Assembly: GCA_934131005.1 (NCBI GenBank)
Contig: CAKOYV010000001.1
Coordinates: 79,868 to 143,867, forward strand
Source: an uncultured Bacilli bacterium
GTDB taxonomy: Bacteria; Bacillota_I; Bacilli_A; RF39; UBA660
DNA: 64,000 bases
Reading direction: 5' to 3'
Below the pieces are notes generated by a model, which saw only the letters and a program-made list of their open reading frames with translations, was not told where the DNA came from and did no database searches. A program made the position numbers and the translations under genes. Numbering within the stretch: the stretch's first letter is position 1; each line of letters begins with the position of its first letter. This document shows, in pieces, positions 17,691-57,077 of the stretch.

Positions 17691-19665
17691 TCAAGATTTA
17701 ACAATAATATTACTACTACTAACTCCCGTAAAATTCTTATCAAGTATCCAATTCTTCTCAACTTCAGACTTAACATAAATAGTAGGTGTTTTTTTAGTTT
17801 TTATAAAATCATTATATGAATTAACTGTATTAAAATCAAAACCTGTTAAATCTAAAACTAAATTATCACTTTCATACCCTGTTCCACTAAACATATATGT
17901 TACATCAGTAACATTTGAAGTATCAAACTTATCATTCAATTTTAAAGAGAAATTTTCACTATTAAATCCTGTTTGGAAAAACATCCATCGCATTTTTGTG
18001 ACATTAGAAGTATCAAATTTATCACCTAAATCAAAAGTAAAATTACGACTAGAATAACCAACTTCCTTAAACATATACTCCATATTTGTAACATTAGAGG
18101 TATCAAATTTATCTCCCAAATCAAGTGTAAAATTAGAAGAATTTTTCCCAACATTTGCAAACATATTAGCCATATTTTTTACATTTGAAGTATTAAACTT
18201 ATCTCCTAAATTTAGTTGAAAAACCTTACTATTAGTACCACAGCCGCTAAACATCCCCCACATATCAGTGACATTAGATGTATCAAACTTACTTCCTAAA
18301 TCTAGAGAAAAAACTTCACTATTAGTACCACAACCATTAAAAAAATAAAACATATTTATCACATTATGTGTATCAAATTTATCTCCCAAATTAAGAGTAA
18401 AATTTTTAGCATTATTCCCTGTTCCAGCAAACATTCTCTCCATATTTGTTACACTAGATGTATCAAATCTATCACCCAAATCTAAAGTAAATACATCACT
18501 TACATTGCCAGTCGACCAAAACATCATATCCATATTTTTTACATTTTTAGTATTAAATTTATCACCTAAATCCAAAGTAAAAACAGAATCATTCTTACCA
18601 GTATTATAAAACATACCATTCATATAAATAACATTTCTTGTATCAAACTTATTACCTAGATTAAGAACAAAAACTGAACTACTACTTCCTAATTCTCTAA
18701 ACATATCTCTCATAGTTGTAGTTTGAATTGTATTTAAATTATCAAAAGATATACTATCTACCTTTGTCATATTTTGAAAAAATTTAGATAAATCTTTAGC
18801 ATATATTTCCTTCTTACTTCCTATATATAAATCATAATATCCATCACTACTATTATTATTAAGCCATGCTACTATACTATTATCCCCTAACTCTGATGCA
18901 TCCCACTGTACAACAGCATTACTTGTATCTATATAATCAACAAATGAAACATTCTTAATCTTTTCTCTATATTCATCACTTCTAAAAGTATCAGCACTTA
19001 TATTTTTCATATAATTAAACTCTCCAACCGTAGAAGTTACACCCGTTCCATTTGATGAAGAGAAATCAATCGTTGCATTATATTTTCCTGTATCTGGTTG
19101 ATTTTTATCTACTTCATCTATCCAAATAACCATATAATAAGTCTTTGATGCTCCCTTTCTCAAAGTTAAATCACTATCAAATCTAGCATCATCTAAACTA
19201 GCATAATGACTACTATACTTACCATAAGTATTTTTATCTTGAATAAGTCGCCATTTCAAGTTTGGCATTTTATCTATATTTCCAAAAGTTATAGTACCAT
19301 TTATTTTAACAGTAGCTGTCCCCGTATTAGTTATTTTAATAGAGTAAACTTGACAAACCGTATTATTATTATCATCAACACAATTATAATTACTAGAAAT
19401 GGCCGTTGCTAAGCCTTTTTCTAATTGAGGTACTAAATACTCTTCATTATTTGGATGTTGATTAACAACCTCTAAAGATAAATCAGCCTCTCCAGCAGTA
19501 CCGGCAATACTATTATTACTAGCTGTTAAGGCATAATAAGCATACGTTCCACCAGTTATCAACAACGCATAACAAAATATCCCTATAATTATTAAGCTAA
19601 CTCTCTTTAGTTTAAGACTTTTGACCCCCCCCCGAATTAACTTTTAGTTTATAATCATTCATCAT
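17691..19665 (-). CDS. Surface protein: SipW-type signal peptide + TasA-like domain + DUF285 repeats; annotated ATG (19665) is frameshifted relative to the body by the G9 tract
   Basis: About nine roughly 22-aa repeats LxLGDKFDTSNVTxMxxMF (DUF285-type). N-terminus GGTYAYYALTASNN...CVDDNNNTVCQVYSIKITN parallels the tandem paralogs at 22889-27800. GAGGT-N6-ATG ATG AAT GAT TAT AAA CTA AAA GTT AAT TC-G9-TCAAAAGTC; the signal-peptide frame begins after the tract. Confidence 0.6.
19625..19633. repeat. Homopolymer C9 (G9 on coding strand) in codons 11-14 of the DUF285 gene
   Basis: With G9 the ATG frame terminates after 17 codons (MMNDYKLKVNSGGGQKS*); G8 would fuse the ATG to the signal peptide and full ORF. 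Confidence 0.9.
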
Positions 19666-22888: not shown

Positions 22889-23623
22889 TTAATCAAATGT
22901 TGCTTTAATTTCATTACCCTCAGCCGTTACAAACGTAGCTTCTCCATTAAATACATGTTCCATTCCCTGCATATAATCTTGAGAAGTACCATCATCATAA
23001 ATCCATATCATAACATAAAAATCTCTACTAGTTGCCACTTCTAAACCACTCTTATCTGCACCACCAATTTGTTCATTAGAAACAAACAAACAATCATAAT
23101 CATCTTTATGATTAAAACCACCTTCATTACCATTTCTAGAACCAGTCTTAATCACTGCTCTCTCATCAAAACTATCATCCTTAAAATCGTCTGTCGTATA
23201 CTTAGTTGTAAATATTTCCTTATCTTCCGATACTTTTTTAGGATAAACTCTAGTAAATCTAGCCTCTACGCCATCCTTTGTCTCAAAAGTTATATAACCA
23301 TCAACAAAAAACACATCATCTTCGCCACCACTAACAGTAATTTTATATATTTGACATCCAGCATTGTTATTATCATCTAAACACAACTGTTCAGATGCAT
23401 GTGGGGCTTCACTATTTTTCATTGGAACTAAACCATTTATTATATCAGCCATTGTTACCCTTGAAATAGCCATACTAAAACTAGTTGTTTCACTTCGTCC
23501 TCTAACAGTATTTCCATCTTGACTACTAGCTGCAAAATAAGCAAATGTAGCCCCTATTATTATAATTGACAAAACCATACAACCAACAAACAAATAAAAC
23601 ATTTTCTTATTACTATTATTCAT
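22889..23623 (-). CDS. TasA/camelysin-like secreted protein with SipW-type signal peptide (divergent, short member)
   Basis: IIIGATFAYFAAS after a K-rich n-region and hydrophobic core; CLDDNNNAGCQIYKITV; C-terminal ...ATFD. Confidence 0.55.
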   Translation of the reverse strand: MNNSNKKMFYLFVGCMVLSIIIIGATFAYFAASSQDGNTVRGRSETTSFSMAISRVTMADIINGLVPMKNSEAPHASEQLCLDDNNNAGCQIYKITVSGGEDDVFFVDGYITFETKDGVEARFTRVYPKKVSEDKEIFTTKYTTDDFKDDSFDERAVIKTGSRNGNEGGFNHKDDYDCLFVSNEQIGGADKSGLEVATSRDFYVMIWIYDDGTSQDYMQGMEHVFNGEATFVTAEGNEIKATFD

Positions 23624-23644
23624 AGCATCACCCTATTCTAAAAA

Positions 23645-23673
23645 CATTATAACAAATAGGCACTAAAAAAACA
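23645..23673 (-). promoter_or_regulatory. Sigma-A-type promoter of the 22889-23623 gene
   Basis: TTGTTT-N17-TATAAT on the minus strand, followed by AGGGTGAT-ATG. Confidence 0.5.
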
Positions 23674-23705
23674 ATACAAGACTTAATTTTTGTATTGTTT
23701 TTAAA

Positions 23706-24665
23706 TTATTGACCAACTCTTTGATCAGATGGAACAGTAGTATATCCACCAAATGTAGCACTTACCTCTCCACCTTGTGCAGAATTAAATGTTACAGTAC
23801 CACTAAAGAAATTATTAGCAGCTGTACTACTACCAGTAGTATCAATAGTTTGATTAGTACCAGTCTCATGTAACCATACAACTATATATAGAATACTAAC
23901 ATTTTTATTAGTAGTATCTCCTTGTGGCTTCAAATATTGATTATATACTAAAGCATCTGCCATATCTTTAGCTCTATCATACTTACCACTAACATGCTTA
24001 CTAGTTCTAATATAATTAGTACTAATAATTTGTCTACTATTACCAGCAAAAGCAGCATTATCTGTAACAGTATTCAAATATCCACCAGCAGTTGAATAAA
24101 TTTTAGTCTTACTCATACCAGTAGCATCTGCTTTATTATCCAAATTAGCAAAAGTTTTTTCTGTATCAGCATTCAAAGCCGTCGTACCACCCGTAGAATA
24201 AGTATTACCAGTTTTAAATACTTGTGCCCATCTCATAGTAGTCTTAGCCGTTGTATCATCTGTTGAAGTACCTGTCTCAGTATTATTAGTCAAAGTAACA
24301 TAACCATCCAAGAACATACTAGCACTTGATTCGTTAGTTAAAGTTATTTTATATATCTGACAAACTGAGTTTCCATTATCATCAACACACGCTTTAGAAT
24401 GTTTAACTGCTTGTTCAACCATTGTATTAGACATTGGTATTAAACCACCATTAGTCTGATCAGTACTCTCATCTCTTTCAACTTTCAATCCAAAGTTAAT
24501 TGTAGCAGCATTACCCGTTAAAGTCGTTGTATTAGTTTGAGTTGCCATAAAGTATGCAAATGTTGCTCCTACAACTGCAACAACTAACGTAAGAATAGCT
24601 ACAACTATATATATTATTCCTTTTCTATCTCTTCCATTATCACTCATTGCTATCCTCCTTACCAT
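23706..24665 (-). CDS. TasA/camelysin-like secreted protein, SipW-type signal peptide (tandem paralog 2)
   Basis: VGATFAYFMATQTN; INFGLKVER; CVDDNGNSVCQIYKITLTN; conserved C-terminus LYIVVWLHETGTNQTI...TVTFNSAQGGEVSATFGGYTTVPSDQ. Confidence 0.6.
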   Translation of the reverse strand: MVRRIAMSDNGRDRKGIIYIVVAILTLVVAVVGATFAYFMATQTNTTTLTGNAATINFGLKVERDESTDQTNGGLIPMSNTMVEQAVKHSKACVDDNGNSVCQIYKITLTNESSASMFLDGYVTLTNNTETGTSTDDTTAKTTMRWAQVFKTGNTYSTGGTTALNADTEKTFANLDNKADATGMSKTKIYSTAGGYLNTVTDNAAFAGNSRQIISTNYIRTSKHVSGKYDRAKDMADALVYNQYLKPQGDTTNKNVSILYIVVWLHETGTNQTIDTTGSSTAANNFFSGTVTFNSAQGGEVSATFGGYTTVPSDQRVGQ

Positions 24666-24671
24666 GTATTA

Positions 24672-24719
24672 AGTATACCAAAAAAGCAAGAAAAAAACAA
24701 CACAAAATTTGCATTGTTT
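24672..24719 (-). promoter_or_regulatory. Terminator hairpin plus embedded promoter between paralogs (same layout at 25691-25738 and 26733-26761)
   Basis: Hairpin AAACAA(C/T)ACAAA-ATTT-G(C/T)ATTGTTT with a U-run on the minus strand. The 3' arm TTGTTT serves as the -35, then N17, then TATACT, then SD AAGGAGG-ATG. Confidence 0.5.
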
Positions 24720-24727
24720 AAATCAAT

Positions 24728-25663
24728 TTACTGTTGATCAGATGGAACAGTAGTATAACCACTAAATGTAGCACTTACCTCTCCACCTTGTGCTGAATTA
24801 AACGTTACAGTACCACTAAAGAAATTCTTAGCAGCCTCTTGATTACCAGTAGTATCAATAGTTTGATTAGTACCAGTCTCATGTAACCACACAACTATAT
24901 ATAATTCACTTTTATTCTTACCATCTTGGGTATTAGTAGATTTTAAATATTGATCATACACTAAAGCATCAGCTAAATCACTCGTTCTATCATACTTACT
25001 ATCCGGCTTATGTTGACTAGTCCTAATATAATTAGTACTAATTATATCTCTAGAATTACCAGCAAAATTAGCTGTATCTGTAACAGTATTTAAATAGCCA
25101 TCACCACTTGCATAAATCATATTCTTACTCATTCCTGTAAGATCACTCTTATTATCCAAAGAATTTATTGTCTTCTCACTATCAGCATTCAAAGTTGTTG
25201 TACCACCAGTAGAATAAGTATTACCACTTTTAAATACTTGTGCCCATCTCATAGTAGTACCAGCACTAGCTAAATCAGTAGATTTACCAGTCTCAGTTTT
25301 ACTACTCAAAGTAACGTAACCATCCAAGAACATACTAGCACTTGATTGATTAGTTAAAGTAATTTTATATATTTGACAAACTGAGTTTCCATTATCATCC
25401 TTACAAGGCGTTTCTGCTGTTACAGCTTTCTCAACCATTGTATTAGACATTGGAATTAAACCACCATTAGTCTGATCAGTAGTCTCAGCTCTCTCAACAT
25501 CTAATCCAAAATTAATTGATGCCGCATTACCTGTAATTGTATCATCATTAGTTTGTGTTGCTGTAAAATATGCAAAAGTAGCTCCTATTATAGCAACTAT
25601 TAATGTAGCAATTCCAATCACACCATAAAACAAACCTTTTCCGTTATAATGATTACCATCCAT
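24728..25663 (-). CDS. TasA/camelysin-like secreted protein (tandem paralog 3)
   Basis: Same conserved N- and C-terminal blocks; variable Ser/Thr-rich core. Confidence 0.6.
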   Translation of the reverse strand: MDGNHYNGKGLFYGVIGIATLIVAIIGATFAYFTATQTNDDTITGNAASINFGLDVERAETTDQTNGGLIPMSNTMVEKAVTAETPCKDDNGNSVCQIYKITLTNQSSASMFLDGYVTLSSKTETGKSTDLASAGTTMRWAQVFKSGNTYSTGGTTTLNADSEKTINSLDNKSDLTGMSKNMIYASGDGYLNTVTDTANFAGNSRDIISTNYIRTSQHKPDSKYDRTSDLADALVYDQYLKSTNTQDGKNKSELYIVVWLHETGTNQTIDTTGNQEAAKNFFSGTVTFNSAQGGEVSATFSGYTTVPSDQQ

Positions 25664-25746
25664 TCTCTCATCCTCCTCTATTATGAAATAAGTATATCAA
25701 AAAAGGAAGAAAAAAACAATACAAAATTTGTATTGTTTAAATTAAT

Positions 25747-26706
25747 TTATTGTTGGTCAGATGGAACAGTAGTGTATCCATTGAATGTAGCACTAACCTC
25801 TCCGCCTTGTGCAGAGTTAAATGTTACAGTACCAGTAAAGAAATTCTTGGCAGCTTCTGCATTACCAGTAGTATCAATAGTTTGGTTAGTTCCTGTCTCA
25901 TGTAACCATACAACTATATATAATTCATTTTTATTCTTACCATCTTGAGTACTAGCAGATTTTAAATATTGGTCATATACTAAAGCATCTGATAAATCTC
26001 CTGTTCTAGTATATTTATTATTTCCTTCTCCAGCTTTTACATGCTTACTAGTTCTAATATAGTTCTTATTTATAACTTCTCTTTTATTTCCAGCAAAAGT
26101 AGTATTTTCACTATCAGTAACTGCACTTAAATATTCTCCACCAGCTGAGTTATAAATATTTTTCTTATTCATACCAGTAGTATCAGTAGCATTATCAATA
26201 TTAGCAATTTGAACTTCTGTATCAGCATTCAAAGTTGTTGTACCACCAGTAGAATAAGTTTCACCACTTTTAAATACTTGTGCCCATCTCATAGTAGTAT
26301 TAGTAGCAGAAGTATCATCAGTAGAAGTTCCTGTAGCAGTTGCATTTGTCAAAGTTACATAACCATCCAAGAACATACTAGCAGTTGATTCATTAGTCAA
26401 AGTAATTTTATATATTTGACAAACTGAGTTTCCGTTATCATCCTTACAAGGAGTTGTAGCTGTTACAGCTTTCTCAACCATTGTATTAGACATTGGAATT
26501 AAACCACCATTAGTCTGGTCAGTAGTTTCAGCTCTTTCTACTTTTAAACCAAAGTTAATTGATGCAGCATTACCAGTAATAGTATTATCATTAGTTTGTG
26601 TAGCTGTAAAGTATGCAAAAGTAGCACCAATTATAGCAACAACTAATGTAGCAACACCAATTACACCATAAAATATTCCTCTTCCTTTCTTATTTTCATT
26701 ATTCAT
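25747..26706 (-). CDS. TasA/camelysin-like secreted protein (tandem paralog 4)
   Basis: Same blocks; variable core. Confidence 0.6.
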   Translation of the reverse strand: MNNENKKGRGIFYGVIGVATLVVAIIGATFAYFTATQTNDNTITGNAASINFGLKVERAETTDQTNGGLIPMSNTMVEKAVTATTPCKDDNGNSVCQIYKITLTNESTASMFLDGYVTLTNATATGTSTDDTSATNTTMRWAQVFKSGETYSTGGTTTLNADTEVQIANIDNATDTTGMNKKNIYNSAGGEYLSAVTDSENTTFAGNKREVINKNYIRTSKHVKAGEGNNKYTRTGDLSDALVYDQYLKSASTQDGKNKNELYIVVWLHETGTNQTIDTTGNAEAAKNFFTGTVTFNSAQGGEVSATFNGYTTVPSDQQ

Positions 26707-26852
26707 TATTATCTATCCTCCTTACTGTAACAAGTATAACAAATTTAATTTTAAAAGACAATATCTTTTTCACATTTTAAAAAAAAATTTATCTAAACAT
26801 CAAAAAAGAATACATATTTCTATGTACACTTTTTATCATAAACTAAATATTA

Positions 26853-27800
26853 TTATTGTGTTCTTGAAGTATCAGATGGAACAGTAGTATAACCACTAAA
26901 TGTAGCACTAACCTCTCCACCTTGCGCAGAGTTAAATGTTACAGTACCAGTGAAGAAGCCATCAGTTTGTCCACCTTCAGCAATTGTTTGGTTAGTACCA
27001 GTTTCATGTAACCATACAACTATATATAAATCATTAGTATTAGCATTATCAGCAGAACCCTTTGCTTTCAAATATTGATCATATACTAAAGCATCTGATA
27101 AATCTTTAGTTCTATCATATGAAGCAGCAGTATGTTTGCTAGTTCTAATATAGTTTTTATTGATTATAGTTCTATTATTACCAGCAAAAGCAGCCTCACC
27201 AGTAACAGCACTCAAATACCCATCACCAGTTCCATAAATCTTATCTTTACTCATACCAGTACCATCAGCTTTATTATCAATATTATCAATTTGAACTTCT
27301 GTATCAGCCTTTAATGTTGTTGTACCACCAGTAGAATACTTACTACCGTCATAAAATACTTGTGCCCATCTCATAGTAGTAGGAGCAGAAGTATCATCAG
27401 TAGACGTACCAGTTGCACCAGCAACTGTATCTTTTAAAGTTACATAACCATCCAAGAACATACTAGCAGTTGATTCATTAGTCAAAGTAATTTTATATAT
27501 TTGACAAACTGAGTTTCCGTTATCATCCTTACAAGGCGTTTCTGCTGTTACAGCTTTCTCAACCATTGTATTAGACATCGGAATTAAACCACCATTAGTC
27601 TGATCAGTAGTTTCTGCTCTAGCTACCTTTAAACCAAAGTTAATTGATGCAGCATTACCAGTAATTGTATCCTCATTAGTTTGTGTTGCAGTAAAGTATG
27701 CAAAAGTAGCACCAATAATAGCAACAACTAATGTAGCAACACCAATTACACCATAAAATACTCCTCTTCCTTTCATTTTATTATCATTACTCATTATCAT
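26853..27800 (-). CDS. TasA/camelysin-like secreted protein (tandem paralog 5, promoter-proximal)
   Basis: Same blocks; variable core. Confidence 0.6.
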   Translation of the reverse strand: MIMSNDNKMKGRGVFYGVIGVATLVVAIIGATFAYFTATQTNEDTITGNAASINFGLKVARAETTDQTNGGLIPMSNTMVEKAVTAETPCKDDNGNSVCQIYKITLTNESTASMFLDGYVTLKDTVAGATGTSTDDTSAPTTMRWAQVFYDGSKYSTGGTTTLKADTEVQIDNIDNKADGTGMSKDKIYGTGDGYLSAVTGEAAFAGNNRTIINKNYIRTSKHTAASYDRTKDLSDALVYDQYLKAKGSADNANTNDLYIVVWLHETGTNQTIAEGGQTDGFFTGTVTFNSAQGGEVSATFSGYTTVPSDTSRTQ

Positions 27801-33006: not shown

Positions 33007-33717
33007 TTACGAATTAAGTATCCAATCTATAATTAATTTTTTGATTTCATAATATTCACTTTCTTCAAATTGCATATTAGCTATACAAAATCGTTTAGAT
33101 GCAATATGGGAACAAAACATACATTCATATAAATCAAAACAATCTTGAATAAATAAAGAATTACTTACTTTATTAGAACAAATAACATTATAACTATTAC
33201 TACAATTTTTGGAATCATCACATCTTATACAAAAATTACACCCACCCGATCTTTGAGAAGCCAATAAAAATTCACTCTTACCACAAGAATCACAGTAAAT
33301 CATATTTCTAGAATCACTACACCCCGTACTTCTATAAATATTTTCACATCTATAAATAGTATCACTCCCAAAAACATCAATAGAATCATAAACTCTCTCA
33401 GTTGTAGTTAAATTAATAGTATTCCATATATCAATTAATTCTTGCAAATTAACTATTTTCCTCTTAGTAAGCATCCAACCACTCTCCCTATCTCTCTTTT
33501 CCATATTCTTATTTGTTATAAATTTACCACTATTAATAGAGTCTGCCCAAGTTATTTCATTTGTAACCGAATCATTTACCTGTTTAGGTAATTTAACATC
33601 AAAAGCAAATTTTTCTAACAAAATATCCATAAAAAAATTATTTTCTCTATCAAATACACTTTCAAATATTTTATTAACAATCAATAACGCCTTAGTACCA
33701 TCCATTTTATCACACAC
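33007..33717 (-). CDS. Cys-rich protein (about 20 Cys in the C-terminal 110 aa), hypothetical partner of the ATPase
   Basis: Start overlaps the ATPase stop by 8 nt (33710-33717); repeated C-x(2-4)-C / CxxS motifs. Confidence 0.35.
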   Translation of the reverse strand: MCDKMDGTKALLIVNKIFESVFDRENNFFMDILLEKFAFDVKLPKQVNDSVTNEITWADSINSGKFITNKNMEKRDRESGWMLTKRKIVNLQELIDIWNTINLTTTERVYDSIDVFGSDTIYRCENIYRSTGCSDSRNMIYCDSCGKSEFLLASQRSGGCNFCIRCDDSKNCSNSYNVICSNKVSNSLFIQDCFDLYECMFCSHIASKRFCIANMQFEESEYYEIKKLIIDWILNS

Positions 33718-35602
33718 CCTTTTTACTTGTTGAATTAGCTATCAAAATATCTTTTAAACTTACATTACCATTTAAATTAAAATTAGTTTTAGATTTATTT
33801 AAATTATCCTTATTAACTGTATTAGTACTCTTACTTGATACCATTCTCTTTATTCTAGGAATACTCGTATAATTTAATGTTCTTCCCTTAAATGCTGGTA
33901 ATAATACACCATTAGACTCTATTCTAGCAATACATTCCCTATTATTAAGCTCTGTTAATAATTTAATTTTTCTCTCTCTAGAATCATCTAATGGTATTTT
34001 CATATTAAAATTATCTACTAATATATTAGCATCTAACTTTGATACTCTAAATATAAAATAATTAATAACATTAGCAAATATAGAATTTCTTAATTCATCA
34101 GATATTTGATTAAAATATTGACCCGCTAATATTAAAGATAAATTATACTTTCTTGCCTCTGATAAATATCTAGACAAAATTGGATTTTCAACGACCGCAA
34201 CCTCATCAATAATAAAGATAATATGCTCACCTATTCCTCGTCTTTTCATTATAGTTAATAACTGTTGCATAATTAACCCTGATATCGTTTTAGTTACTTT
34301 ATCCCCCAACTTTGTTCTATCTAGTGAGAATAAAGTCAAAAAATTATCACAAATAGTATCTTTTAAATTTTTACTATTTTTATTTGAATTAAATACAGGT
34401 ATCATTTCCATCTCATCAATAAAACCTATAATTGGAGATATTGCTTCTCCATAAGCCTTAGTTTTTAAATCATTAAAATCAGATAAAAAAAAGTCTATTA
34501 CACTAATAGGTAAATTACATTTTAATTCCTTTATTAAGCTATTCCTATATTCCAAATCTAATATAAGTCTTCTTAAATTTTTAAAATTAAACTCCCCATA
34601 AGTCAATAGCAAATGTATAGAATGTCTTAAAACTCTCTCTAATTTAGAATTATATTGATAAGCAATTAATGATTTTAATAGCTCTAACAAAAGTTCTGTT
34701 GATGCAACAATATCACTACTATCATTAATAAACAAATCTATACTATCTAAATCACTTTTAAAATCAATTATTTTTCCAATACCACCTATATCATCTTCAA
34801 GAGAAGCATGAGGATCTATTACTACAACTTTATACCTTTCTCTAAGCTCTTCGCATTTATTAATATTATTAATTAATAAGCTTATAAATTTAGATTTACC
34901 ACATCCTGAAGACCCCATTATAATAGAATGCTTAGCAAAACTAAAATTATTTTGTTTTAAATAAAAATCTTCCTGTAAATAAGGAAATGTATCAACTGAT
35001 AATAAAGCATTATTAGAATCATTAGTTAATAAATATAATATTTTACTTACATCTAAATATTTAGGAAAACTCTTATAAAAGTATCTTTTATTTCCTTCAA
35101 AATCTACTGATAATATACTAGTCGCAACAGCAAATATAGCATTATACCTCTTTATTACCCCATCTTTATTAAGGTAAAAACATATTTTAGACTTAATCTT
35201 ATCTTCATACAATTTCCAAAAACTAATTTCTAAATATTCTAAAGTACCTTTATTTCTAACTTCATTATAATTTATTAAATCTATAATACTACTCCCAACT
35301 TTAATTAATGAAAAGAACGTATATTTTGGATTATGAACCTCTACTAACTTTCCTTCCTTTAACAAAAAAGAATTCAAATTATTTACCGTAGCAGGCAAAT
35401 TACATCTAGTTTTAATAAAATATCTTATTTGATTTCTATCATTAGTAATAATTATTTTCCATCCCTTTAAAATACCATTATAATCTGATATTGTCTTAAT
35501 TAATTCTAACCATTCTTCTTTTGTAACAAATTTTTTAGTTAGATATATTTCTGAAGTTACCCCATAACAAATCGCCTCACAAAAAGTATACCAAAATGGC
35601 AA
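33710..35602 (-). CDS. HerA/FtsK-superfamily (DUF87-like) P-loop ATPase
   Basis: Walker A IMGSSGCGKSKF followed by VVIDPHASLED (HerA-like iDPHGEY), Walker B IIFIIDEVAVV, LILAGQ sensor-like motif; 230-aa N-terminal domain without TM. Confidence 0.5.
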   Translation of the reverse strand: MPFWYTFCEAICYGVTSEIYLTKKFVTKEEWLELIKTISDYNGILKGWKIIITNDRNQIRYFIKTRCNLPATVNNLNSFLLKEGKLVEVHNPKYTFFSLIKVGSSIIDLINYNEVRNKGTLEYLEISFWKLYEDKIKSKICFYLNKDGVIKRYNAIFAVATSILSVDFEGNKRYFYKSFPKYLDVSKILYLLTNDSNNALLSVDTFPYLQEDFYLKQNNFSFAKHSIIMGSSGCGKSKFISLLINNINKCEELRERYKVVVIDPHASLEDDIGGIGKIIDFKSDLDSIDLFINDSSDIVASTELLLELLKSLIAYQYNSKLERVLRHSIHLLLTYGEFNFKNLRRLILDLEYRNSLIKELKCNLPISVIDFFLSDFNDLKTKAYGEAISPIIGFIDEMEMIPVFNSNKNSKNLKDTICDNFLTLFSLDRTKLGDKVTKTISGLIMQQLLTIMKRRGIGEHIIFIIDEVAVVENPILSRYLSEARKYNLSLILAGQYFNQISDELRNSIFANVINYFIFRVSKLDANILVDNFNMKIPLDDSRERKIKLLTELNNRECIARIESNGVLLPAFKGRTLNYTSIPRIKRMVSSKSTNTVNKDNLNKSKTNFNLNGNVSLKDILIANSTSKKGV

Positions 35603-35640
35603 AAGAAAAAATTGACTTTTTAATAATCAATTTTGTCAGT

Positions 35641-36444
35641 TTAATAAATTGCTACTAGAAAATCAGTTATACCATCATGATAATATTCTAACTCAGGTAA
35701 TTCTTTCAAATTATATTTAACTGATGGTAAAAACTCGCCATAAAACTTATGCGATATTTCTTGAATTTCTTTAGGATTTTGTGAATTAATCCTAAACTTC
35801 AACCACTTACTTTTAGGTATTTTAATTTGTTCAAATCCTTCAATTTTCTTATCATATAAACAATAATATCTTTGACTCTCTTTATGCAAAAGATCATAAG
35901 TAATCATTCCATATATAACACTACCACATGTACTTAAATATTTATCCTCAACACTCTTAAAAAAAATTGGAGCATACTTACCGATTTCATCATTATTAAC
36001 TATAATACTAACACCATACAAATCCATCTCATCTAGAGTAACTATTTCATAATCTAACTCAGTAGTAAAATTTATATTTTCATTAAAAACTATCCTAGGA
36101 AAATTTTTTAACTTTGTCTCTTTATTTACTAAACTAGGCTTAATACCATGAAATTTTTCAAATGCTCTTGAAAAAGATGTAGCATTCCCATATTGGTATT
36201 TAAACGCAACATCTATTACCTTTAAATGTCCTTCATATAAATCATATCCAGCACTAGATAGCCTTCTTTTTCTAATATATTCAGCCAAGGAAATACCCGC
36301 TATCATAGTAAATAACCTCTGCATCGTATAAACATTTACACCCAATACTTTGGCCAAAACTTCATAATTAATCTCTTCTTCTAAATTTTCATCAATATAT
36401 TTAGTAATTTCATTTAAACTTTTATAGATATTCAAAATAATCAC
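35641..36444 (-). CDS. AraC-family transcriptional regulator with C-terminal GyrI-like effector-binding domain
   Basis: N-terminal AraC HTH (VNVYTMQRLF...ATSFSRAFEKFHGIKP) followed by a roughly 150-aa GyrI-like domain. Confidence 0.7.
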   Translation of the reverse strand: MIILNIYKSLNEITKYIDENLEEEINYEVLAKVLGVNVYTMQRLFTMIAGISLAEYIRKRRLSSAGYDLYEGHLKVIDVAFKYQYGNATSFSRAFEKFHGIKPSLVNKETKLKNFPRIVFNENINFTTELDYEIVTLDEMDLYGVSIIVNNDEIGKYAPIFFKSVEDKYLSTCGSVIYGMITYDLLHKESQRYYCLYDKKIEGFEQIKIPKSKWLKFRINSQNPKEIQEISHKFYGEFLPSVKYNLKELPELEYYHDGITDFLVAIY

Positions 36445-36556: not shown

Positions 36557-37486
36557 TTATTTAACAATCTTTGTATTAATAAAATCAACTATATCATTAT
36601 AAACCTCTAAATATTTAGCTTCATGTAATATATCATGACGCATACCAGGATATATTTTCATATCAACTGAAGCTATTTTAGCCTGTTTAAATTTATTATA
36701 AGTTTTAATAACTCCCTTACCAAAATTGCCAACCGGATCATCTCCACCAGACAAAAGCAAAATTGGCATCTCTTTACTCATTTTTTCTATATTTTTCTTA
36801 AAACAGGCAACCTGCATACTATTTAACATCTCTCTAAATAAACCTACTGTAAAATCTCCTCCTCTATGTACATCAGCTATATATTCATCTAATTGCTTAT
36901 TATCAGCACATAACCAATCATAATCAGTTCTATTTGGCTTAAATTTCTTATTATAAGTACCAAACGTTAATTTCCTTATACCAGGACTAGTCTTATTATC
37001 ATCTACATGCCTTCCCTCATTCCATACAGCCATTCTAGCAAGCTTTAATTCTATAGACGAAATATCACCAGTTCCCATAATAATAGCCCCATCTACCAAT
37101 CCAGGGTACTCAATTAATAAATCTCTAACTAAAAATGATCCCAAAGAAAAACCTATCAGACAATAAGGAACATTATCATATTCACCACTCCCCTTAAGAT
37201 AACAAGTATATAAATCACCAACCGCATCTTCATAACTGCCATCAGTCCCAAAATACATAACATTATCTTTATTTAAAACTGATTCTCCATGTCCCAAATG
37301 ATCATTCCCAATAACCACAAAACCACGTTCTGTCATATATTTAGCAAATCTATCATATCTAAGAATATATTCTGTAACTCCATGTGCTATTTGAATAACA
37401 CCTCGAACCTTACCATCAGGAACCCATTTTACCCCATGAATCTTTGTCTTACCATCACAAGAATCATAATAAAAATCCTCTCTCAT
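36557..37486 (-). CDS. Alpha/beta hydrolase (lysophospholipase/monoacylglycerol-lipase-like)
   Basis: HG oxyanion motif, GFSLGS nucleophile elbow, C-terminal His. Confidence 0.7.
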   Translation of the reverse strand: MREDFYYDSCDGKTKIHGVKWVPDGKVRGVIQIAHGVTEYILRYDRFAKYMTERGFVVIGNDHLGHGESVLNKDNVMYFGTDGSYEDAVGDLYTCYLKGSGEYDNVPYCLIGFSLGSFLVRDLLIEYPGLVDGAIIMGTGDISSIELKLARMAVWNEGRHVDDNKTSPGIRKLTFGTYNKKFKPNRTDYDWLCADNKQLDEYIADVHRGGDFTVGLFREMLNSMQVACFKKNIEKMSKEMPILLLSGGDDPVGNFGKGVIKTYNKFKQAKIASVDMKIYPGMRHDILHEAKYLEVYNDIVDFINTKIVK

Positions 37487-38782: not shown

Positions 38783-38856
38783 TGGAGGGCCTAGTCGGAT
38801 TTGAACCAACGATCAGGGAGTTGCAGTCCCATGCCTTACCACTTGGCTATAGACCC
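38783..38856 (-). tRNA. tRNA-Cys (anticodon GCA), CCA encoded
   Basis: Cloverleaf folded by eye: acceptor GGGTCTA/TAGGCCC, D-arm GCCA..GGCA, anticodon loop CTGCAAC, T-arm GTTGG-TTCAAAT-CCGAC, 3' TCCA. Confidence 0.85.
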
Positions 38857-55021: not shown

Positions 55022-56473
55022 TTACTTAATCAAATCTGATTTATCTTCATATTTAGTATGTAACAATTCATGAGCTACATTACTAAGAGGACTCTCTAAA
55101 AACTCAGCATATAACTTTTTAATCTCTGGATTTTCATAACTGCACCTAATTTTTTGTGCTTTATCCCTATTATAAAGTGCCTTCATTCTCTTTTCTTTTA
55201 TTTCTTTCTCATGATAAATTTCTATCTTAGGTTGACCTCCACCACCTATACAGCCACCCTGACAATTCATAACCTCAACAAAATGATATTTTCTCTTACC
55301 ATCTCTAATCTCATCTAATATCCTACGAGCTTTTCCTATTCCATGAATAACACAAACATCAATTTTCTCATTTCCAATATTAATAGAAGCCTCTTTAACA
55401 TTATCATAACCTCTAACACTATTAAAATCCAATTTATCTATATCTAAATTTTTACCTGTAATCAAATAATAAGCCGTTCTAAGAGCTGCTTCCATTACAC
55501 CACCAGTACTACCAAAAATAACACCAGCACCACTGCCCTCTCCAAACATAGAATCAAAATCACTATCTGGAATATCTTCATACTTAATTTTTTTCTCTTT
55601 AATAACATCTATTAACTCATTAAGAGTAATAACCAAATTAGTTCCTCTAATCTCATCTCTTTTGATTTCGTACTTCTTTGCTGTACAAGGAGTAATTGCT
55701 ACAGTATACATATTATCTTCATCTATATTCTTAAACTTAGTAAAATACTTACTAATAACACTCCCCATCATGGCAATTGGACTCTTACAAGTAGAAATAT
55801 TAGATAAAAGACTTGGATAAAACTGCTCTGCATACTTAACCCAAGCAGGGCAACAACTAGTAAACATTGGCAAATTAGAATTATTATTAATTCTCATAAC
55901 TAACTCGCTAGCTTCTTCCATAATAGTCAAATCAGCTCCAAAAGTAGTATCAAAAACATAATCAAATCCTAACATTCTAAGCAAACCAACAACTTTTTTC
56001 TGTTCAAAAGAACCATATTCAAGCCCAAATATTTCCCCTAAAGAAACTCTAACTGCAGGAGATATATAAGCAATACACACTTTTTTATTTAAATGTGCTT
56101 CCTCAAATAAAGAAAATTCATATCTAGCACTAAGCGCCTTCGTCGGACAAGTTTGAATACATTGACCACAGCTAACACAAAGTTCACTATTACTATCAAA
56201 CTGCATTCCCTCACGAATAACACAAGTCTGTGTACAAATTCCACAATTAACACATAAATCATTATTTCGAACAACCCCCTTATTATCAAGAGATATTTTA
56301 ACCGCATTAGAAGGTGTCATATCACTAGATGAATTATCACTAACAGAAGAAAATAAATTTATTGTAGCACCACACATAGGACAAGTCCACTCACTAGATA
56401 ATTTATCAAATTTAATATCTTCCCTATCTTCATCATAAACATAACCACAAATCATACATTTATATTTACTCAT
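55022..56473 (-). CDS. [FeFe]-hydrogenase with N-terminal rubredoxin domain and two [4Fe-4S] ferredoxin motifs
   Basis: Rubredoxin CMICGY...CPMCG; CVNCGICTQTC and CVSCGQCIQTCP; H-cluster motifs TSCCPAW, TPCTAKKYE, VEVMNCQGGCIGGGGQP. Confidence 0.8.
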   Translation of the reverse strand: MSKYKCMICGYVYDEDREDIKFDKLSSEWTCPMCGATINLFSSVSDNSSSDMTPSNAVKISLDNKGVVRNNDLCVNCGICTQTCVIREGMQFDSNSELCVSCGQCIQTCPTKALSARYEFSLFEEAHLNKKVCIAYISPAVRVSLGEIFGLEYGSFEQKKVVGLLRMLGFDYVFDTTFGADLTIMEEASELVMRINNNSNLPMFTSCCPAWVKYAEQFYPSLLSNISTCKSPIAMMGSVISKYFTKFKNIDEDNMYTVAITPCTAKKYEIKRDEIRGTNLVITLNELIDVIKEKKIKYEDIPDSDFDSMFGEGSGAGVIFGSTGGVMEAALRTAYYLITGKNLDIDKLDFNSVRGYDNVKEASINIGNEKIDVCVIHGIGKARRILDEIRDGKRKYHFVEVMNCQGGCIGGGGQPKIEIYHEKEIKEKRMKALYNRDKAQKIRCSYENPEIKKLYAEFLESPLSNVAHELLHTKYEDKSDLIK

Positions 56474-56534
56474 ATCACTAATTCCTTACTATTTAACAAA
56501 AGAGTTCCTAAGAAAAGAACTCTTTATTATAATC

Positions 56535-57077
56535 TTAATAATTTTCACTCTTAATCTCAAAGAAACTTTGAGGATGAGAACATATAGGACAAACCTTAGG
56601 AGCTTCCTTACCAATAACCACATGGCCACAATTACGACAAATCCAAATCTTTTCTCCATCCTTAGAAAATACTAAACCATTCTCAACATTATCAAGTAAT
56701 TTTCTATATCTTTCTTCATGCTCTTTTTCTATTTTAGCAACTCCCTCAAAAAGAAATGCTAATCTATCAAATCCTTCTTCACGAGCTGTCTTAGCAAACT
56801 CTGCATACATATCAGTCCATTCATAATTTTCTCCCTCAGCAGCTGCTAGTAAATTACCCATAGTAGAAGGAATTTCTCCACCATTTAATTCTTTAAACCA
56901 TAACTTAGCATGTTCTTTTTCATTATTAGCAGTCTCTTCAAAAATAGCTGCTATTTGCTCATAGCCATCCTTTTTAGCTTTTGAAGCAAAATAAGTATAC
57001 TTATTTCTAGCTTGACTCTCACCAGCAAAGGCAGTCATTAAATTTTGATACGTTTTACTATCTTTAAGTTCCATCAA
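56535..57077 (-). CDS. rbr: Rubrerythrin
   Basis: Di-iron ferritin-like EKEH motifs plus C-terminal rubredoxin CxxC...CxxC. Confidence 0.85.

Follow-up and report, generated by a model that had tools for sequence, protein, structure and literature searches.

A 64,000-nucleotide (nt) stretch of AT-rich chromosomal DNA from a gut RF39-type member of the class Bacilli (contig CAKOYV010000001.1; hereafter the window) carries a regulator gene followed by a two-gene operon, which encodes a soluble, predicted catalytically intact P-loop ATPase of the FtsK-HerA superfamily and a dedicated β-solenoid protein of 232 amino acids (aa). The closest records bearing homologues of these genes are metagenome-assembled genomes (MAGs) labelled 'uncultured Bacilli', 'Candidatus Coprovivens', 'Mollicutes/Tenericutes' or 'Ventrenecus'. 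HerA/VirB4-class ring ATPases are the motors of DNA repair, conjugation and secretion, as well as of several anti-phage systems solved in recent work, and in such systems function is set by the partner protein. The original prediction on this DNA had described the ATPase and its small neighbour as an uncharacterised two-gene module, and this description was borne out, as the pair fits no described family or system.

Gene map and pairing of the two genes

The three co-oriented open reading frames (ORFs) predicted on the minus strand were all present (Table 1). The small gene had been read from a GTG, giving a product of 236 aa and an overlap of 8 nt with the ATPase stop. Nearly all listed close homologues of the small protein were 231-234 aa long, most of them exactly 232, and began with MDGTK, and the start was therefore reassigned to the ATG at 33705, which is preceded by a Shine-Dalgarno (SD) sequence, AAGGGTG, and lies 4 nt past the ATPase TGA (33712-33710). 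The translational coupling proposed for the two genes stood, since intergenic spacing was -11 to +5 nt across loci, and tight coupling is thus a trait of the family.

The ATPase gene was located immediately upstream of the solenoid gene at all 80 loci from species-representative genomes and at ~76 of 82 metagenome loci, the non-paired metagenome loci being truncated contigs; in total the two genes were neighbours in ~156 loci of RF39 Bacilli and Saccharibacteria. Co-occurrence, one of the checks suggested with the original prediction, therefore came out in favour of the module: the small gene adjoined the ATPase gene at essentially every locus showing both, down to L081, where the solenoid member was only 26% identical, and the pairing was also kept in Saccharibacteria, where the ATPase is annotated as 'DUF87 domain-containing protein'. 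In an unclassified MAG (L171, 602-6726) a helix-turn-helix (HTH) gene and one ATPase gene were followed by six tandem, translationally coupled solenoid paralogues, 40-53% identical to one another, whose N- and C-terminal parts are constant and whose middle varies. On a contig of Micrarchaeota (DPANN; L169, 2554-7690), which carries distant relatives, the ATPase gene was followed by a fused double-unit protein and then by three or more further units, making at least five in all, and an HTH gene flanked the pair there too. Orphan distant members of the solenoid family, with no ATPase gene, were found at three loci (L170, L172 and L173).

Between RF39 and Saccharibacteria the solenoid proteins were 50-52% identical and the ATPases 37-38%, and the solenoid protein was more conserved than the ATPase in every comparison. 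The ratio of non-synonymous to synonymous substitution (dN/dS) against nearest relatives was ~0.1 for the regulator, ATPase and solenoid genes, with similar dS across all three. The two genes are inherited together, their translation is coupled and strong purifying selection acts on both, and the status of the pair as a functional operon is firmly supported. It is probably absent from the cultured Saccharibacterium Southlakia epibionticum ML1, the gene tables of which list DUF87/HerA features only in VirB4 and in a different, 921-aa protein resembling a type IV coupling protein (PMC10633639). A search for literature on DUF87 or HerA in Saccharibacteria or Patescibacteria found nothing.

The limits of the unit were set by the same comparison of loci. 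A lipase-like hydrolase gene had been included in an accessory block ending near a tRNA-Cys gene, and this part of the prediction failed: the hydrolase gene was found at none of ~160 loci carrying the unit and thus is not part of it. Similarly, a 270-aa downstream protein and an NlpC/P60 fragment of the window were found at 0 of 96 AraC-bearing loci. Locus L031 has the order HtpG-RDD-Trx-bPH-AraC-ATPase-solenoid, which equals that of the window minus the tRNA-Cys, a coiled-coil gene and the hydrolase, and reflects the ancestral arrangement, in which the hydrolase was not included. The hydrolase and tRNA-Cys genes lie outside the conserved unit. The AraC/GyrI regulator gene had also been placed beside the pair, and in RF39-type loci it is part of the unit, lying directly upstream of the ATPase gene in 96 loci, all of them RF39-type.

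Table 1. Coordinates of the unit, its control elements and nearby genes in the window
Feature	Position	Strand	Remark
tRNA-Cys	38783-38856		2.3 kb upstream of the unit
Hydrolase (alpha/beta)	36557-37486	minus	Hydrolase_4, 5e-35
AraC-type HTH and GyrI-like/Cass2 effector-binding regulator	35641-36444	minus	267 aa; Rob/SoxS-like architecture
Conserved control region	35564-35640	minus	From spacer DNA alignments
Near-palindrome ACTGAC-N18-GTCA(A/G)T, then T-run	35640-35611	minus	
Extended -10 box TGgTATACT	35593-35585	minus	Consensus TGnTATAnT
SD sequence GAGG	35578-35575	minus	Family form GAGGTGA
Orthologous ATPase ATG	35565-35563	minus	
Soluble FtsK-HerA-superfamily P-loop ATPase	33710-35602	minus	Conserved start near 35563 (617 aa); ORF open from TTG 35602 (630 aa)
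Partner (solenoid) protein, 232 aa	33007-33705	minus	ORF as first read: 33007-33717

The ATPase and its partner protein

The motifs predicted for the ATPase, Walker A GSSGCGKSK, VVIDPHASLED and Walker B IIFIIDEVAVV, were all found. The features that define the FtsK-HerA superfamily (Walker A, a Walker B of the form hhhhDE, Arg finger, sensor Gln and RecA-like core) are present; homologues show no variation in Walker A, Walker B or the Arg finger, and the catalytic residues K223, D453, E454 and R471 (617-aa numbering) were invariant in 34 and in 97 homologues. The highest mean over 19 residues on the Kyte-Doolittle scale was 1.17, and the ATPase therefore has no transmembrane segment, in agreement with the original prediction. 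An N-terminal domain does precede the P-loop as had been proposed, its length being ~215 aa and not 230 aa. Some structure predictions were run on database proteins rather than on locus-derived sequences. The AlphaFold2 model of the ATPase (predicted local distance difference test, pLDDT, 78.5) has a single ATPase domain and comprises a family-specific N-terminal region (~1-200), a RecA-like core that contains an all-alpha insert (~285-392), and a disordered linker (574-597). The protein ends in a short C-terminal helix with the motif F-x7-L-x-D-I/F-L-x-S-x-S-x-S-R/K-K, which is common to RF39 and Saccharibacteria and is missing from the ATPases of both tandem arrays.

Comparison of the ATPase core with known structures gave scores of 29.4 for the C-terminal domain of DptH/DndH, 28.4 for that of VirB4, 24.8 for Sulfolobus HerA (20% identity), 24.0 for TrwB, 22.9 for Deinococcus HerA and 22.2 for the DUF4297-associated HerA, so that the core is about equally similar to DptH, VirB4, HerA and TrwB. 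The best PDB matches of the ATPase family profile were defence-type HerA proteins (8xau, 3e-6), and the top match in any library was the PADLOC model mad8 (1e-14). No relatives of the N-terminal domain were found in the PDB by single-sequence or profile searches. The scores against curated models were all far under cut-off and, together with this N-terminal domain, they place the ATPase outside the described families. It is thus firmly supported that the protein belongs to the FtsK-HerA superfamily, in the branch of VirB4, HerA, type IV coupling proteins and DptH, yet to no described family.

Each of the known families and systems was considered in turn. HerA proper, be it of the HerA-NurA or the defence type, was rejected on the unrelated solenoid partner, the N-terminal domain with no detectable relative and a score of 17 against NCBIfam HerA_antiphage, the cut-off of which is 800; the HAS barrel of HerA was not demonstrated in this domain (~200 aa), which matches nothing. 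The partners in Sir2-HerA/Nezha, DUF4297-HerA and HerA-NurA are Sir2, DUF4297 and NurA, whereas here the partner is a solenoid with no enzymatic domain. A VirB4/TraC conjugation ATPase was rejected on 28 bits against VirB4_CagE (TIGR00929; cut-off 643) and the lack of VirB3, VirB6 or other type IV secretion system (T4SS) genes among recurrent neighbours. The match to Pfam TrwB_AAD_bind was marginal (21.3 bits against a cut-off of 20.5, no domain stretch passing alone) and that to TraG-D_C weak; with no transmembrane anchor and no relaxase or T4SS neighbours, a coupling protein of the VirD4/TrwB/TraG/TcpA type was also rejected. FtsK/SpoIIIE and the EccC/EssC proteins of type VII secretion systems (T7SS) were discarded on the single ATPase domain, the lack of a transmembrane segment and an EccCb match confined to the P-loop (21 bits, cut-off 347). 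DptH is a much larger multidomain protein than this ATPase, and the unit differs from DptH/DndH, TdpA phosphorothioate restriction and the mad8 of MADS in that no other Dpt or Tdp genes recur beside the pair; it also failed to qualify as DndFGH. MADS itself was rejected: despite the mad8 match, the neighbours are the AraC and solenoid genes, and a mad3-like gene is adjacent in L031 only. Among the known anti-phage systems in PADLOC v2, the ATPase matched only generic HerA and mad8 models, and the solenoid protein matched no family. The unit works most like the HerA-plus-partner modules, with a partner family that is undescribed.

The 5' end of the ATPase gene is unusual in the window. Its start in relatives, MGLTSEIYL, lies ~13 codons inside the 630-aa ORF, and the orthologous ATG (35557-35565, minus strand) here runs into GGG TAA through a deletion of 1 nt (ATGGGG-TAAC), where 27 other loci read ATGGGGTTAAC. 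Slippage by -1 on the GGGG ahead of the stop would yield M-G-V-T-S-E-I-Y-L, nearly the orthologous N-terminus; the TTG, which is the sole in-frame start, precedes the conserved -10 box. As 79 contigs carry the 630-aa ORF in identical form, the deletion is not an assembly error; the same deletion, with GTG, was seen in L024 (about 4150).

For the partner protein, AlphaFold2 predicted (pLDDT 83.8) an alpha/beta N-terminal domain (1-102), a β-solenoid (~103-213), the last rungs of which had pLDDT above 95, and a C-terminal helix (215-231). Its assignment as a Ser/Cys-ladder β-solenoid is firmly supported by the model. The protein is acidic (pI ~5) and has neither a transmembrane segment nor a signal peptide. 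HMMER, run exhaustively against 1.84 billion representatives, found only 260 relatives, most of 228-245 aa and down to ~22% identity, with some proteins of ~525 aa holding two units. The top-conserved motif is ECMFC-x8-YCIANMQF-x3-EY. About 20 cysteines in CxxC units had been counted in the small protein and taken to mark a metal-type effector; there are in fact 13, all within the last 120 aa. Among 43 diverse members aligned, only C207 and N210 were invariant and C198 nearly so, the cysteine positions of the window protein being mostly Ser in other members, which carry 4-15 Cys. Of the 13 Cys, 9-10 were at least 84% conserved within the RF39/Saccharibacteria subfamily, with Ser again the usual replacement, and C195, C198 and C207 were invariant in 80 non-redundant sequences. 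This alternation of Cys with Ser, together with the fold, overturned the idea of a Cys-rich metal-type effector.

No model in Pfam, NCBIfam or PADLOC matched the partner protein, and its single PHROG match was weak (15341, 2e-5, over the repeat region); scans of the same kind with all 43 family members still gave no usable match. Single-sequence and profile searches of the PDB found no relatives, fold searches with the model returned only generic solenoids in the PDB and nothing in BFVD, and a profile-profile comparison of the solenoid and ATPase families found no relation. Domain fusions among the family representatives were all uninformative, one of them resembling an assembly chimera. The Tenebrio antifreeze protein, ice-binding proteins, curli CsgA and the pentapeptide-repeat DNA mimics are likewise compact residue-ladder solenoids, with which the partner shares stacked Ser/Cys ladders and its acidic pI. 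Separately, L173 (525-4014) encodes two tandem proteins of ~580 aa, with treble-clef zinc fingers at both ends and solenoid repeats finishing in K-x-YCI-x-N-x-Q-Y-x-x-x-(D/E)-Y, a motif common to the partner protein; no ATPase gene lies nearby, and these proteins are of related but distinct architecture.

Regulator, control region and genomic neighbourhoods

The identity predicted for the regulator was confirmed by Pfam matches to HTH_18 (61 bits, cut-off 33.6, 1e-16), GyrI-like (44 bits, cut-off 26, 3e-11) and Cass2 (3e-10), and the protein has the features of an AraC/XylS regulator with a GyrI-like effector domain, as in Rob. Its best NCBIfam matches, RobA, RamA and SoxS, were all far under cut-off, and it was rejected as a Rob or SoxS ortholog (62 bits against a cut-off of 380). 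A linked ligand-sensing regulator in RF39 is firmly supported. The spacer between the AraC and ATPase genes was 60-100 nt long in 88 of the 99 loci measured, and the control element within it was kept down to loci with a 53%-identical solenoid protein. The near-palindrome sits at ~-30 to -60 from the extended -10 box and recurs together with the AraC/GyrI gene. Changes in its arms across loci were not compensatory, and the palindrome is therefore more likely to be a protein-binding site than an RNA hairpin; from its place near the -35 position it is plausibly bound by the AraC protein. A terminator and promoter scan found no terminator, the scan being uninformative in this AT-rich DNA.

Beyond the trio of regulator, ATPase and solenoid genes, no neighbour recurred in more than 20 of ~170 loci. 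Conjugation, T4SS, T7SS, relaxase, NurA and FtsK/SpoIIIE genes were all missing from the recurrent neighbours of these loci, so that the conjugative or FtsK/SpoIIIE surroundings that would have spoken against an uncharacterised module were not found. The RF39 downstream flank was highly variable, with housekeeping genes and occasional defence-type or mobile genes, and has the look of a variable hotspot. Genes found immediately downstream of the solenoid gene were those for a mad3/LmuB/GajA-like SMC ATPase (L031, 6701-9661), QatA (L026, 7358-9175), DUF3800/PDC-M04A (L001, 6844-7728), a serine recombinase (L008, about 4302) and a transposase (L002, 4320); a Sir2-family gene was also seen among the downstream neighbours.

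The seven Saccharibacteria loci fell into at least five different genomic contexts. In three loci the pair lay between fusA and rpsG of the str operon on the opposite strand, and in another context it was inserted into the spc operon, co-oriented with the flanking rpsH and rplF (these ribosomal-operon insertions being L164/L165, 6382-9792, L159, L163 and L167). In the other contexts the pair was found behind a superoxide dismutase (SOD) gene, behind RNase Y and TsaD, and in one unrelated setting.

Elsewhere in the window, five tandem paralogous genes encoding proteins of 244-319 aa occur at 22889-27800 (minus strand) and also at 17691-19565, with N-termini like GVIGVATLVVAIIGATFAYFTATQTN, which we take to resemble signal peptides of the SipW/TasA type; an N-terminus of this kind is also encoded downstream of the module in L015. 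Judged by eye, the genes at 55022-57077 (minus strand) encode a rubredoxin-fused oxidoreductase and a rubrerythrin, which are typical of oxidative-stress defence in anaerobes.

Possible roles of the unit

The explanation that we tentatively favour, at less than even odds, is that the unit is an inducible, ATPase-driven machine of the conflict or defence type, acting on nucleic acid, with the solenoid protein as its sensor or adaptor; the anti-phage role suggested in the original prediction is likewise tentative. It is preferred because the nearest relatives of the ATPase are defence ATPases, because the pair behaves as an accessory element in Saccharibacteria, because the paralogue arrays have constant ends and a variable middle, and because the flanks are variable. 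By analogy with its structural relatives, the ATPase may form a ring motor. The solenoid protein would dock on it through its two constant parts, the N-terminal domain and the C-terminal helix, perhaps by contact with the N-terminal domain of the ATPase, with the tethered C-terminal tail of the ATPase or with both, and the variable face of the solenoid would serve as a recognition or effector surface. The adaptor idea stems from the paralogue pattern in L171 and from the tail motif of the ATPase, which follows a disordered linker and is conserved between RF39 and Saccharibacteria. The regulator would turn the operon on upon a small molecule or stress.

Several observations weigh against such a role. 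No nuclease, NADase, pore or other effector domain was recognised in either protein by library, PDB or fold searches, and no phage or viral copies were found in IMG/VR, in BFVD or by tblastn of both proteins against INPHARED. The trio behaves as vertically inherited across ~100 RF39 species genomes, and the conservation of the solenoid protein, at the RF39-Saccharibacteria identity given above, is unusually high for a protein involved in conflict; its length is 232 aa in six of seven Saccharibacteria loci (236 in L167). Only a minority of 149 distinct downstream families matched PADLOC strongly, a raw count with no background rate, and many of the 62 models matched fell on the same few proteins. 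The pair is found inside ribosomal-protein operons in two independent Saccharibacteria contexts, and SOD or thioredoxin lies directly upstream of the ATPase gene on the same strand in three loci, the SOD loci coming from two unrelated lineages (L146, 5209-5823, RF39-type; L161, 5055-5648) and the thioredoxin from L151 (5736-6050).

These same observations, namely the missing effector domain, the extreme conservation, the vertical inheritance and the ribosomal-operon and redox-gene neighbours, sustain a second explanation, to which we give about one chance in four: a stress-response or housekeeping machine of reduced-genome organisms, in which an ATPase-solenoid complex, induced by a Rob/SoxS-like regulator, would either counter oxidative or xenobiotic stress or work on the translation machinery, and the Cys/Ser ladder could be a surface that responds to redox state or binds targets. 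The architecture of the regulator and its best NCBIfam matches agree with this, as do the conserved cysteines of the RF39/Saccharibacteria subfamily, the strong purifying selection, the co-oriented insertion between rpsH and rplF and a Trx-like gene three genes upstream in both the window and L031. Redox neighbours, however, occur in only 3 of ~25 contexts that lack the AraC gene, the regulator matches fall far under the family cut-offs, the pair is seemingly missing from at least one cultured Saccharibacterium, and tandem paralogue arrays with a variable middle are atypical of a housekeeping factor. Moreover, no stress system is known to use a HerA/VirB4-class ATPase.

It is considerably less probable that the ATPase is an orphan translocation motor, akin to a coupling protein or VirB4, with the solenoid proteins as substrates recognised by their C-terminal helix and fed to a secretion or assembly route. 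The weak TrwB_AAD_bind and TraG-D_C matches point this way, as does the succession of one ATPase and five or six paralogous 'substrates' in L171 and L169, which recalls T7SS, and so does the C-terminus, the best-conserved part of the small protein. A 2025 preprint that describes thousands of VirD4-like matches in candidate phyla radiation (CPR) genomes, far from virB4, and raises exaptation as a possibility can be read in the same sense, but the T4CP-like gene of S. epibionticum in that preprint encodes the different, 921-aa protein. Moreover, the ATPase has no transmembrane segment and the solenoid protein no signal peptide, and none of the recurrent neighbours is a membrane, T4SS, T7SS or relaxase gene, the lack of a membrane component in particular weakening this proposal.

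A small protein acting as a metal-binding (Zn or Fe-S) Cys-cluster effector is more doubtful still. The 13 cysteines do include CxxC spacings at 138/141, 156/159/162 and 195/198, and three of them are invariant in the RF39/Saccharibacteria subfamily. Across the whole family, however, C207 alone is invariant and C198 nearly so, the usual substitute is Ser, a poor metal ligand, and relatives have as few as 4 Cys, while the ~18-residue spacing of the cysteines fits ladders along a solenoid predicted at pLDDT above 90. Library and fold searches gave no zinc-ribbon or HNH match, and a zinc-ribbon or CxxC metal protein, with its four conserved Cys/His ligands, was rejected on the same conservation. 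Since most Cys positions are Ser in distant relatives, a conserved metal site in the solenoid protein appears unlikely from the alignments.

Lastly, a remnant of a conjugative element, plasmid or phage integrated near tRNA-Cys has been largely refuted and is very improbable: the tRNA-Cys 2.3 kb upstream, a GC content of 24-26% that is slightly under that of the flanks with no clear compositional island, and weak matches to PHROG families 5156 and 15341 are set against the lack of any integrase or repeats seen, genes between tRNA and unit that are not conserved with the unit, the lack of matches in IMG/VR, INPHARED and BFVD, and a trio that is syntenic and apparently vertical in RF39.

A ring ATPase with a dedicated partner is an already known theme, and the novelty of the unit lies in a partner family that is in no Pfam, NCBIfam, PADLOC or PDB entry. 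Beside the favoured conflict or defence-type machine stands the possibility, rather unlikely but with a real chance of about one in four, that lineages with reduced genomes and a dependence on hosts or partners share in this pair a cellular machine that has so far escaped notice, with a function outside defence, conjugation and DNA repair. Such a machine would span RF39 Bacilli, Saccharibacteria, Micrarchaeota and possibly others, and the ribosomal operons and SOD/thioredoxin neighbours hint at a translation- or redox-linked role; were this so, the solenoid with its Ser/Cys ladder would represent a novel type of adaptor driven by an ATPase. The carriers are for the most part uncultured, and in minimal genomes such as theirs the majority of the genes kept can be expected to be important. 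Learning what the complex does would assign a role to a recurring element of microbial dark matter, and might uncover a novel way in which ring ATPases employ effectors or adaptors, or else a novel defence system testable in tractable Saccharibacteria.

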